A stretch of DNA of 37,147 nt, from positions 1 to 37,147 of the forward strand of contig JBAXSP010000006.1 in NCBI GenBank assembly GCA_037130655.1, read 5' to 3'. The translations under genes and the position numbers were made by a program. Source of the stretch: a bacterium (GTDB lineage: Bacteria; Patescibacteriota; Minisyncoccia; Phycocordibacterales; UBA9973). The notes under the pieces were generated by a model that saw nothing but the letters and a program-made list of their open reading frames with translations, had not been told where the DNA came from and did no database searches. Below are positions 4,894 through 6,898 of this stretch, piece after piece (within the stretch, counting starts at the first letter, position 1; every line of letters starts with the position of its first letter).

Positions 4894-5024
4894 AACCAGG
4901 TCTTTCCCTGGCGTCACTGTATTTTTAGGTCCATACATCATGACCATTATGTACTCAATTGAAGTACACAATATCGACATTCAATACTCAATCATTCCGA
5001 AGAACAGATTGGAGTACCTTTTCA

Positions 5025-6898
5025 AATTGAATCATTCCACGACCAGCTTCCGCTAGCCGTGCCTTGTTACGACTTAGTCCCTGTCACCGAGCTTACCTTA
5101 GGCCACCCTTATGGGCAGACGTCGGGCACTCCCGGCTCCCTTGACTTGACGGGCGGTGAGTACAAGACTCGAGAACGTATTCACCGCAGTATGGCTGACC
5201 TGCGATTACTAGCAATTCCGGCTTCATGAGGTCGAGTTGCAGACCTCAATCCGAACTGGCGCGTTGTTTATAAGGATTGGCTCAGGGTTACCCCGTCGCG
5301 ACCCGTTGTCAACGCGATTGTATTATGTGTGTAGCCCCAGATATCAAAGGGACATGCTGACCTGGCGTCATCCTCTCCTTCCTCCCAGCCCGATGGTTAC
5401 GAGTGATATGCTTTGTGGAATTCTTATAACTAAAAGATAAATCTTTTTGAAATAAGAATTCCACAAAACACACCATAGTCATATGCACGGTGGAAACTTT
5501 ATTTAAATAGCAGATAAATTCTGTTCAAAAAATAAAAGCATTTATAAAATCTTATACTTCATCTTCGACTCGGACGTTATGAATGAGATAACTCATTCAT
5601 ACGCTCCTCGCTTGATGAAGTAAAATTTCCACTGTACATACAACTCCTCACTTGCAGTGTGGAGTTTTCAAAACTAAAAGATAAATCTTTTTGAAATAAA
5701 AACTCCACACTGCAAATGAGTTCATACACATTGGGCTGGGCGGTCTCGTGTGACACTTATAACACACGACAAGGGTTGCGCTCGTTACCCCACTTAAGGG
5801 AACAGTTCAAACCACGAGCTGACGACGGCCATGCATCACCTGCCTAATTGTCTTGCGAGGGCTAAAGTTTCCTAAAGCTTGCAACTAGGTTTCAAACCTG
5901 GGTGAGGTGCTTCGTTTATCGTCGAATTAAACCACATAATCCACTGCTTGTGCGAGTCCCCGTCTATTCCTTTGAGTTTTAACCTTGCGGTCGTAGTTCC
6001 CAGGCGCATCACTTAACGCGTTAGCTTCGCCTCGGGGAGGGTCGATACTCTCCAAAGCTAGTGATGATCGTTTAGGGCGTGGACTACTGGGGTATCTAAT
6101 CCCATTCGCTACCCACGCTTTCGTGCTTGAACGTCAGTTATATGCCAGTGTGCTGCCTTCGCTTTTGGTGTTCCCCATGATATCAACGGATTTCACCCCT
6201 ACACCATGAGTTCCGCACACCCCTCATATACTCAAGCTCTACCGTTTCTTTTGCGGGTTCCAGGTTAGGCCTGGAGATTTAACAAAAGACTAATAGTGCC
6301 GTCTACGCACCCTTTACGCCCAGTGATTCCGGATAACGCTCGAGGCCTCTGTATTACCGCTCCTGCTGGCACAGAGTTAGGAGCCTCTTATTCGTAGGGT
6401 ACCGTCAATAAACTTCTTCCCCTATAAAAGATCTTTACACCCCAAAGGGCTTCATCGATCACGCGGCGTCGCTCCATCAGACTTTCGTCCATTGTGGAAG
6501 GTTCTTGACTGCAGCCACCCGTAGGTGTATGGGCCGTGTCTCAGTCCCATCGGTGGGGGTCAGGCTCTCACCTCCCCTAAGCGTCATAGCCTTGGTAGTC
6601 CATTACACTACCAACTAGCTGATACTCCGCAGGCTCTTCCCTAAGCGTTAAAACTTTACTCTTGCGAGACCATCATGTATTAGTACACCTTTCGATGTAT
6701 TATTCATGACTTAGGGGGAGATTCCTACGTGTTACTACCTCGTTCGCCACTAACCAGCGTCTTTTTTCAAAATATCGCTTCGCTTTGTATTGCTACTCCA
6801 CGTTACTTTATCGATCCAAAAGACAAGGTCCGTTCGACTTGCATGCCTTATCCACGCCGCCAGCGTTCATCCTGAGCTAGGATCAAACTCTACTTAAA
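5025..6898 (-). rRNA. rrs: 16S rRNA (ends approximate), with ~340-nt insertion; not linked to 23S
   Basis: AGAGTTTGATCCTAGCTCAG near the 5' end, GTGCCAGCAG..GCGGTAA, ATTAGATACCC, AAACTCAAAGGAAT, AAGTCGTAACAAGG and helix 45 with GGAA loop. Confidence 0.98.
5391..5733 (-). other. Non-coding structured insertion (IVS-like) in 16S helix 40 region
   Basis: AT-rich block closed by CCCAGCCCGATG (5384-5395)/CATTGGGCTGGG (5729-5740), just 5' of GAGGAAGG in the rRNA sense; 28-nt direct repeat at 5428-5455 and 5672-5699. Confidence 0.85.

Follow-up and report, generated by a model that had tools for sequence, protein, structure and literature searches.

Loss of the anti-Shine-Dalgarno core from the 16S rRNA of a Paceibacteria/Parcubacteria genome and its probable SD-free, partly leaderless translation initiation

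The 16S rRNA gene in the 37 147-nt stretch of DNA analysed here (the window) ends without the anti-Shine-Dalgarno (anti-SD) core. Shine-Dalgarno (SD) pairing is the textbook route by which bacterial ribosomes find start codons. In the reading that we regard as likely, this is a functional, single-copy Paceibacteria/Parcubacteria 16S rRNA from which the core was lost as an inherited trait of the order, in a genome (630 kb, 38% GC) whose translation initiation would be SD-free and, for many genes, leaderless. The placement in the Parcubacteria/Paceibacteria (CPR) is one that we infer from shared helix 45 and tail sequence rather than from a tree.

The 16S rRNA gene (5025–6898, reverse strand) matched the full Rfam model RF00177 (positions 1–1533) with a score of 1313.9 bits (gathering score, 50), which identifies it as a bacterial SSU rRNA. 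The whole genome, rated 100% complete, gave a single RF00177 match and hence a copy number of one; the 23S rRNA gene is on another contig, unlinked to the 16S rRNA gene. The length of 1874 nt is owing to insertions. The larger, of 346 nt (5389–5734, reverse strand; [346] against four model positions in the cmscan alignment), lies in the loop of what is presumably helix 40 (model positions 1149–1169) and holds two long hairpins (5410–5469 and about 5647–5720); an expansion of about 60 nt near the 5' end (approximately 6762–6821, reverse strand) is located at model position ~80 ([60] against six model positions). Helix 45 (5038–5061, reverse strand; CACGGCUAGC-GGAA-GCUGGUCGUG) is intact, with all pairs standard in the 3' alignment to RF00177, and all 10 of its pairs were found paired in 100% of cells when 18 sequences from the order were compared, one pair covarying between CG and GC. 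Directly after helix 45, the consensus GGAUcACCUCCUUu faces GGAAUGAUUCAAUU in the query. Downstream of the helix GGAAUGAUUCAAUUUGAA occupies the place expected to hold GGAUCACCUCCUUU, and the 3' tail that replaces the latter (5017–5037, reverse strand), GGAAUGAUUCAAUUUGAAAAGG, is without CCUCC. The gene does not end in the canonical tail GGAUCACCUCCUUA, which carries the anti-SD CCUCC; its SSU membership by score is unaffected. The closest CUCC, in GGUACUCC (about 5018–5011), is not a CCUCC. An earlier sequence-only reading had placed at 5020–5065 an intact helix 45 lacking the anti-SD tail, with the nearest CUCC ~20 nt further on; the RF00177 alignment bears out the structure, the coordinates and this distance.

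The genes of this organism offer no counterpart to an anti-SD. Across the whole 630-kb genome, GGAGG and AGGAG were each present in 0 of 572 start regions (−20 to −1), with starts taken from a crude custom gene caller. Its rule, to choose the earliest ATG up to 90 nt from the first candidate, favours ATG, and some starts may be misplaced. The shorter words GGAG, GAGG and AGGA occurred in 4, 4 and 13 of the 572 regions, 3–7 times more rarely than before internal ATGs, and G content falls to 6–10% at −13 to −1 of starts. Duplex-energy profiles of 571 genes had no trough before starts, whether computed with the canonical anti-SD or with the actual tail, and no gene class showed an SD. The same gene caller applied to Escherichia coli as a control recovered SD motifs near starts in 21 of 49 genes vs 5 of 49 far from them, and an energy trough of −3.1 kcal/mol. 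SD-independent initiation, as the sequence-only reading had proposed, is therefore supported in this genome: GGAGG enrichment before starts, the outcome that would have spoken against it, was not seen, and the genome-wide pairing energy of the tail agrees. Because the tail is without the anti-SD core, ribosomes would be unable to dock on these mRNAs by SD pairing.

Roughly one gene in three, or more, has a −10 promoter box next to the start codon. Matches to a −10 position weight matrix (PWM) with the hexamer starting at −16 to −11 preceded 185 of 571 genes, vs 37 of 571 in a control window at −46 to −41. Hexamer starts peaked sharply at −12 (62 matches; only three at −11), and the gap between hexamer and ATG (n=184) was 6 nt in 62 cases, 7 nt in 32, 8 nt in 37, 9 nt in 34, 10 nt in 17 and 5 nt in two. 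The box TAtAaT is the sigma-70 −10 consensus, with A2 and T6 near-invariant, and a TGn extension was seen in columns outside the PWM (T at −3 in 67%, G at −2 in 59%), TG being present in 92 of 185 near matches vs 8 of 37 far matches. The −35 element was weak, with TTG at spacers of 14–18 in 39 of 184 cases. Boxes stood beside 214 of 1037 ATG candidates (20.6%) vs 22 of 801 TTG (2.7%) and 11 of 368 GTG candidates (3.0%), and before 145 of 8419 internal ATGs. They were found at 57 of the 148 genes that have a divergent neighbour upstream, at 59 of 156 genes with gaps >100 nt and at 20 of 114 with gaps ⩽10 nt.

Four such arrangements in the window, all with 6 nt between box and ATG, illustrate this layout. 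The ATG of ftsH (23002–24900, reverse strand; FtsH domains) is preceded by TGaTATAAT at 24907–24915 (score 8.7, hexamer start −12, extension TGA). The other three, also −10 PWM matches, are TGtTATAAT at 11465–11473 (forward strand) before an ATG at 11480, TATACT at 15812–15817 (forward strand) before recG (15824–18025, assigned by domains), and TGtTATACT at 35431–35439 (reverse strand) before a gene for a VirD4/TraG-like coupling protein (32659–35424, domain search). The same layout precedes rplT and the bS21 gene, whose N-termini, we take it, resemble those typical of their families.

A −10 box at this distance from the start codon is, on the level of sequence, the signature of leaderless mRNAs, and the tie of the box to ATG candidates points indirectly to dependence on a 5'-terminal AUG. 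In the mechanism that we favour, an extended −10 promoter (TGnTAtAaT) 6–9 nt before the gene would set the start of transcription at, or a few bases from, the A of the AUG, and the resulting leaderless mRNA would be bound directly at its 5'-terminal AUG. Some two thirds of the genes lack a strong −10 box at leaderless distance, and for these only composition and spacing may hint at how initiation proceeds. Operon-internal cistrons begin 1–5 nt after the preceding stop, where the sequence is poor in G, rich in A/U and has U at −1; re-initiation after termination, or bS1-assisted binding to unstructured RNA, would be the most likely route for these.

The strongest competitor to leaderless initiation, which we nevertheless consider unlikely, takes the TAtAaT signal for a non-SD ribosome-binding or enhancer element, read for example by bS1, on leadered mRNAs with unstructured A-rich leaders as in Bacteroidota. 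It would fit the upstream composition, which is G-poor and A/U-rich in all gene classes with U at −1 in 55–78% of genes, operon-internal ones included, as well as the boxes at genes ⩽10 nt behind the previous gene. A possible reader is also encoded: of the two proteins that the sequence-only reading had named as worth checking, bS1 corresponds to a 357-aa frame containing four S1 domains, and a divergent bS21 is probably present, its matches scoring below both curated cut-offs. An enhancer does not, however, account for a motif identical to the sigma-70 −10 consensus down to its near-invariant positions, for the TGn extension of half of the boxes in columns unused for detection, or for a distance to ATG that breaks off between −12 and −11. 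The weak enrichment of TTG 14–18 nt upstream of the box and the far higher frequency of boxes at expected promoter sites likewise speak for promoters.

The tail that replaces the anti-SD is itself conserved. We searched 40 relatives of the same order, in which 17 16S rRNA 3' ends were readable; all 17 had the same type of tail (consensus across the order, GGAAUAAUUCAAUUUGAAA) and none had CCUCC. Public genomes contained the pattern of helix 45 plus tail in at least 120 more contigs. Record titles among the contigs listed included Paceibacterota, Parcubacteria, Nomura-, Zambryski-, Taylor-, Yonath- and Adlerbacteria; many TPA records were titled 'uncultured Candidatus Saccharibacteria', others plain 'bacterium' and one Spiroplasmataceae. 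A UUC-N5-GAA element in the tail (5021–5031, reverse strand) may form a mini-hairpin, and UUC-N3-6-GAA was found in 107 of 120 loci among the matches listed. Four proposed pairs of the mini-hairpin were paired in 86% of cells in 18 sequences, in an ungapped alignment that misaligns four sequences with shorter loops; two of the pairs vary on both sides, such changes occurring in three sequences, and the single-sequence minimum-energy fold of the tail does not contain the hairpin. We regard the mini-hairpin as a possible structure with modest support. The conserved UUC and GAA halves suggest a separate role for the tail, and conservation of this kind would argue against purely neutral decay.

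Conservation throughout the order could also mean that the new tail is a replacement anti-SD pairing with another motif (within CAAAUUGAAUCAUUCC) before genes, an idea that we consider very improbable. AATCATT, the complement of AAUGAUU in the tail, is present in 10 of 572 upstream regions vs 0.4% before internal ATGs; yet it has no preferred position, its excess is like that of other A/T-rich words (6.8-fold for TAAT), and the tail position opposite to it varies among A, C, G and U in relatives. Energies calculated with the real tail gave no trough beyond baseline in the 571 genes or in 137 operon-internal ones, binding in fact weakening toward the start, and TTGAA, TGAAT, ATTGAA and GAATCA occurred at 0.4–0.76 of the control rate.

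Least credible of all is an anti-SD that was missed, whether because an insertion or intron following helix 45 had moved it, because a second rRNA copy carried it or because mis-assembly had removed it at the gene end: insertions do occur in this gene and are known from CPR rRNA genes (PMC9297842), and the genome was assembled in nine contigs, but the genome, rated 100% complete, has a single 16S match, GATCACCTCC, CACCTCCTT and TCACCTCCT occur genome-wide only in unrelated contexts and never behind a helix-45-like sequence, CCTCC lies within 400 nt, at scattered distances, in 12 of the 131 related loci that had at least 200 nt of downstream sequence, the junction and downstream spacer are conserved in independent assemblies, and a DNA sequencing run, possibly the source sample, has 95% of the sampled words of 4600–9600. 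Because this is the sole 16S rRNA gene of a genome with a completeness rating of 100% and its tail type is common to its relatives, the loss of CCUCC at the 3' end is confirmed as real and no artefact, neither chance nor a local defect.

Among 141 tails from a sample of the wider class, tallied by eye, 58 had CCTCC, 18 had CTCC only and 65 had neither. SD use was compared between tail classes in 10 + 10 genomes, with 40 kb each beside the 16S rRNA gene. In the ten relatives with a canonical tail (325 genes), SD 4-mers were found near starts in 30 genes vs 37 far from them, and there was no energy trough before starts. The anti-SD-less relatives of other orders had GGAGG near starts in 13 vs far in 1 of 335 genes, a small and correctly positioned SD-like signal that complicates an account by relaxed constraint. 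Horizontal gene transfer was rejected as the origin of these motifs; the GC content of the 22 genes that carry them was not deviant (p=0.74) and their clustering was weak (4 of 22 neighbours).

The ribosome-assembly GTPase Era recognises GAUCA plus CCUCC (PMC10582724), its recognition sequence being GAUCACCUCC. No Era match exceeded the cut-off in this genome, and within the class a single genome of 241 yielded Era. It was rejected as a discriminator of canonical and decayed tails, and since it is absent from nearly the whole class it can be only a permissive factor. Once both known readers of GAUCACCUCC, SD-led initiation and Era, had gone from the class, the tail would have been free to decay, because SD-led initiation is undetectable even with a canonical tail and Era is so rare; in this order the tail would then have become fixed as GGAAUNAUUCAAUUUGAA. 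A more detailed scheme, which we put forward tentatively and hold to be possible rather than probable, is an ordered dismantling across the Paceibacteria with loss of the anti-SD as its last event. SD-led initiation and Era would first have been lost class-wide, leaving canonical tails unread; tails would then have drifted independently in many families via intermediates such as CAUCUCC, UUUCUCC and CACUUCU; and this order would have re-fixed a new, conserved terminal UUC-N3-6-GAA element that serves a separate function as a mini-helix or protein site. Over the same period, leaderless translation would have become the main entry route through extended −10 promoters that abut the AUG. The literature searched on SD and leaderless initiation in CPR, Parcubacteria and Patescibacteria gave the absence of the motif as such, but none of these further steps.

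Parts of this arrangement are familiar from other systems. Mycobacterium, Streptomyces and Deinococcus, and the 'group C' genomes of GeneMarkS-2, are rich in leaderless genes. These likewise have a −10 box ~6–7 nt before the start codon, require AUG and are without SD, a likeness that for the present genome is one of box position in the sequence. Those bacteria, in contrast, keep the anti-SD and use SD on leadered genes, whereas here the anti-SD is gone and no gene class has SD. Bacteroidota retain an anti-SD that is unused, sequestered on the ribosome in Flavobacterium johnsoniae. They share with this genome the genome-wide lack of SD and the A-rich, G-poor leaders, but here the anti-SD is absent and promoters abut start codons; the Bacteroidota-type state, with anti-SD kept and SD unused, corresponds to that of the ten Paceibacteria relatives with a canonical tail. 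Mitochondrial mRNAs are leaderless or near-leaderless, and mitochondrial SSU rRNA resembles the present one in having lost the anti-SD together with a simplification of the ribosome. In mammalian mitochondria, the 12S rRNA is without an anti-SD and helix 45 is bound by ERAL1 (PMC10582724). Mitochondria keep an Era homologue, which is absent here; the present genome belongs to a free bacterial lineage and has promoters of its own.

The window represents one more member of a published group. CCTCCT was detected at the 16S rRNA 3' end in only 48% of Parcubacteria (Tsurumaki et al., 2022, RNA 28:1041, PMC9297842), and Parcubacteria without it overlap the group lacking uL1, SD helices being thought not to form there (PMC9297842). 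The present genome shows the same trait in the same lineage, without CCUCC(U) and without uL1 (no match to PF00687 in a genome rated 100% complete; the control was found in 14 of 14 genomes). The sequence-only reading was right in stating that a few lineages with reduced genomes are reported to have lost the anti-SD, but too vague in leaving it there, as the loss was published for exactly this lineage in 2022 (PMC9297842). That article, supplements aside, appears to state no replacement for SD, and the word 'leaderless' occurs 0 times in its text. The additions made here are the rarity of Era in the class and the missing SD use in relatives with a canonical tail. A large and abundant class without the rRNA half of SD pairing would show that this pairing is dispensable in free-standing bacterial lineages as well as in organelles. 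In practice, starts in such genomes will be misplaced by gene callers and start-site models built on a ribosome-binding site, and SD-dependent hosts will need added signals to express these genes. If a larger sample confirms AUG-adjacent extended −10 boxes, the lack of SD alongside an intact anti-SD and the class-wide absence of Era, the order of events in SD loss becomes testable.

The infC-rpmI-rplT genes of the window, all on the forward strand and identified by Pfam, give a local example of leaders without SD. GGAGG was absent from all three leader sequences, as had been read from the window alone. infC, encoding IF3 (28061–28573; IF3_N 1.1e-29, IF3_C 4.8e-11), has an uncertain start, either TTG at 28061 or a non-ATG codon further downstream. 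Its stop is separated from the ATG of rpmI, encoding bL35 (28578–28769; Ribosomal_L35p 2.8e-07), by 4 nt (TAA-TTTT-ATG). rplT, encoding bL20 (28795–29142; Ribosomal_L20 2.6e-34), follows a 25-nt A/T-rich spacer with TATAAC at −15 to −10.

Sequence words of the stretch were shared by 22 sequencing runs, the shared fraction being 0.95 in one DNA run and 0.22 and 0.20 in the best RNA runs. Four RNA runs yielded short contigs (the 32 listed being of 60–136 nt) with 95–99% identity to conserved parts of the 16S rRNA, evidently from many organisms; they leave 4500–4969 and 5440–5721 without cover, gaps that carry no evidential weight. RNA contigs from other organisms also skip about 6750–6830, at the site of the ~60-nt expansion.

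The full-length bacterial 16S rRNA gene of the window (5025-6898, minus strand; Rfam, 1313.9 bits, model positions 1-1533) ends without CCUCC, the anti-Shine-Dalgarno (anti-SD) motif complementary to the Shine-Dalgarno (SD) motif of mRNAs. Alignment of its 3' end to the model showed an intact helix 45 (CACGGCUAGC-GGAA-GCUGGUCGUG, minus strand 5061-5038) followed by GGAAUGAUUCAAUU, the model having GGAUcACCUCCUUu at the same place. The sequence-only reading had given the coordinates and letters of this region correctly, and the nearest CUCC does lie about 20 nt further on. Of the 40 relatives searched, 24 belong to this family and a further 16 to its order; 20 gave a 16S match, and 17 of these could be read to the 3' end. 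Every one of the 17 tails had the form GGA(A/U)U..UUC... and none contained CCUCC. The 3' strand of helix 45 followed by GGAWTNNTTCAA matched at least 120 contigs in a species-representative genome collection (hereafter tail-pattern loci); those listed bore the titles Paceibacterota, Parcubacteria, Nomura-, Zambryski-, Taylor-, Yonath- and Adlerbacteria; many TPA records among them were labelled simply 'bacterium' or 'uncultured Candidatus Saccharibacteria', and a single contig was labelled Spiroplasmataceae. A genome-wide search found no canonical tail sequence in an rRNA context, and CCTCC occurred within 400 nt downstream in 12 of 131 related loci, at scattered distances. Because the tail is shared by relatives, has no canonical counterpart elsewhere in the genome and is only rarely and irregularly followed by CCTCC, an assembly artefact, a pseudogene and a displaced exon were all rejected.

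The source genome (630,524 bp, 38% GC, nine contigs of which the window is one entire contig) is rated 100% complete with 0.09% contamination and has one 16S gene and one 23S gene, the latter unlinked on another contig (92158-95726). The 23S gene is 3569 nt long against 2925 positions in its model and therefore has insertions too. The 16S gene owes its 1874 nt to two insertions: one of 346 nt (5389-5734, minus strand), which lies in the loop of the 1149-1169 helix (model numbering) and contains two long, almost perfect hairpins (minus strand, 5410-5469 and about 5647-5720), and an expansion of about 60 nt close to the 5' end. At model positions 505-530 (window about 6340-6360, minus strand), a universal primer region, the gene reads GUGCCAGCAGGAGCGGUAAUAC instead of ...GCAGCCGCGG..., so standard primers of the 515F type would mismatch this organism.

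PMC9297842 describes a subgroup of Parcubacteria, overlapping the group that lacks uL1, in which the anti-SD motif has been lost, and infers that no SD helices form there. Ribosomal protein uL1 is missing from the present genome, consistent with the uL1-lacking group. The tail is real, was correctly interpreted and is ordinary for the lineage. No paper tying this lineage to leaderless initiation was found in the searchable literature; the supplements of PMC9297842 may tabulate tails.

SD use was assessed on 574 genes called by a simple ORF and codon-score procedure; where ATGs lay no more than 90 nt from the first candidate, the first of them was taken as the start. Neither GGAGG nor AGGAG occurred at -20 to -1 in any of 572 upstream regions, and GGAG, GAGG and AGGA occurred in 4, 4 and 13; the corresponding frequencies before 7499 internal ATGs were 0.9% (GGAGG), 1.3% (AGGAG), 5.1% (GGAG), 2.5% (GAGG) and 6.3% (AGGA). 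G content at -13 to -1 was down to 6-10%, and the mean duplex energy, against the canonical anti-SD and the real tail alike, showed no trough and weakened towards the start. In 50 kb of E. coli K-12 treated with the same kind of caller, SD 4-mers were present in 21/49 genes near (just upstream of) the start vs 5/49 in a control region farther upstream (far), with an energy trough of -3.1 kcal/mol at -14. The sequence-only reading had proposed SD-independent initiation and named GGAGG enrichment before starts as one possible refutation; with GGAGG at 0/572 starts, initiation in this genome is SD-independent.

The words enriched upstream of starts were instead TATAAT, TATACT and AATAAT. The first base of TATA[AC]T peaked sharply at -12 (35 matches, with 10-18 at each of -13 to -16 and one at -11). 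A position weight matrix trained on these matches (T.84 A.94 t.78 A.99 a.64 T.94; threshold 5 bits) scored at -16 to -11 in 185/571 genes vs 37/571 in the equal-width window -46 to -41, an excess of 28-37% of genes depending on threshold. When sequences were aligned on the hexamer, two columns unused for finding it stood out: -3, which was T in 67%, and -2, which was G in 59%. This is the TGn that marks extended -10 promoters, and TG preceded 92 of the 185 near matches vs 8 of the 37 far ones; TTG was mildly enriched 14-18 nt upstream of the hexamer (39/184). The gap between hexamer and ATG was 6 nt in 62 genes, 7 nt in 32, 8 nt in 37, 9 nt in 34, 10 nt in 17 and 5 nt in 2. The box accompanied 214/1037 candidate ATGs, 22/801 TTGs, 11/368 GTGs and 145/8419 internal ATGs, and it is commoner at sites where a promoter is expected: 57/148 genes with a divergent neighbour and 59/156 after a gap above 100 nt, vs 20/114 after a gap of 10 nt or less. 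Of the 26 genes called in the window, 12 carry the box, including recG, a VirD4-like gene and ftsH (TGaTATAAT-6 nt-ATG); outside the window, the bS21 candidate reads TGaTATAAA-6 nt-ATG. With a sigma-70-type -10 box 6-7 nt ahead of the ATG's A, transcription is expected to begin at the start codon itself, and we infer from this spacing that box genes would yield leaderless mRNAs.

Inside operons, genes most often began 3 nt (20 genes), 1 nt (19), 2 nt (9) or 5 nt (9) after the stop of the preceding gene, and between same-strand neighbours 1 or 3 nt apart the spacing follows TAA. Overlaps of 4 or 1 nt, the usual bacterial gene junctions, were rare (three and two genes). U stood at -1 in 78% of operon-internal genes and in 55-68% of other gene classes. 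The infC, rpmI and rplT genes of the window fit this picture: the junction ahead of rpmI reads TAA-TTTT-ATG, and rplT follows a 25-nt A/T spacer containing TATAAC. Such starts are probably served by re-initiation after termination, by bS1-assisted entry on unstructured RNA, or by both. The two proteins singled out for checking by the sequence-only reading fared differently: bS1 is present (357-aa frame, four S1 domains), as is IF3, while the bS21 candidate, of 78 aa, covers nearly the entire profile but falls below both curated cut-offs (22.5 vs 27 bits; 21.4 vs 28.95).

The new tail is not random. Its order-wide consensus is GGAAUNAUUCAAUUUGAA, and UUC-N3-6-GAA, with a loop of varying length, occurred in 107 of the 120 tail-pattern loci listed, the search pattern having imposed the UUCAA half but not the GAA half. 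In 18 sequences of the order, four proposed tail pairs were paired in 86% of cells, vs 26-42% when partners were slid by one to three columns, and three sequences carried double-sided changes (one UA-to-CG and two AU-to-CG). The putative hairpin is absent from the minimum-energy fold, for which it is too weak.

Across the class, a sample of 241 genomes gave 150 listed matches, of which 9 were spurious and removed; the remaining 141 tails, sorted by eye, comprised 58 with CCTCC, 18 with CTCC only (CATCTCC, TTTCTCC, AACTCC) and 65 with neither, the last including graded forms such as CACTTCT. This tally agrees with the 48% of Parcubacteria in which PMC9297842 reports the motif. The KH domain of Era recognises GAUCA and CCUCC (PMC10582724). 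Era gave no match above cut-off in this genome and was found in 1/241 class genomes, while RbfA is present here, in agreement with the class-level picture in PMC12641178. Ten canonical-tail genomes from ten families (40 kb each, 325 genes) had SD 4-mers in 30 genes near vs 37 far, strong duplexes in 30 vs 55, and no energy trough before starts. Two readers of the canonical tail, Era and SD use, are thus missing class-wide, a lead to why the tail could decay. The -10 box at leaderless distance was present but rarer in the canonical-tail genomes (31/325 vs 14 in the control) and rose through anti-SD-less genomes of other orders (55/335 vs 17) and tail-pattern loci (117/540 vs 25) to this genome (185/571 vs 37), a gradient that, like tail decay, we treat as a lead because the relative samples are small, adjoin the rRNA gene and are phylogenetically non-independent.

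A small SD-like signal was seen in the anti-SD-less genomes of other orders (GGAGG 13 near vs 1 far of 335 genes) and in the tail-pattern loci (9 vs 1 of 540); it was correctly spaced, and the energy profiles dipped slightly at -15 and -14. GC content was rejected as its explanation, the GC of those genes being ordinary. Neither the canonical-tail genomes nor this genome had such a signal.

The window also encodes a tRNA-Ile with anticodon UAU (18082-18156, plus strand). Since tRNA-CAU genes number just two in the genome and TilS gave nothing above cut-off (20.6 vs 93.6 bits), AUA seems to be read by this unmodified-C-independent tRNA, replacing the usual lysidine system. A tmRNA gene (25561-25949, plus strand; Rfam, 121.3 bits) was missed by ARAGORN. 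A 756-aa protein (2438-4708, plus strand) ends in a Por_Secre_tail (T9SS-type sorting) domain (8.6e-10); CPR bacteria, to which the class belongs, are thought to be single-membraned, and this domain is unexpected there. A 1467-aa protein (18419-22822, minus strand) carries a Peptidase_S74 (endosialidase-chaperone, tail-fibre-like) domain close to its C-terminus.
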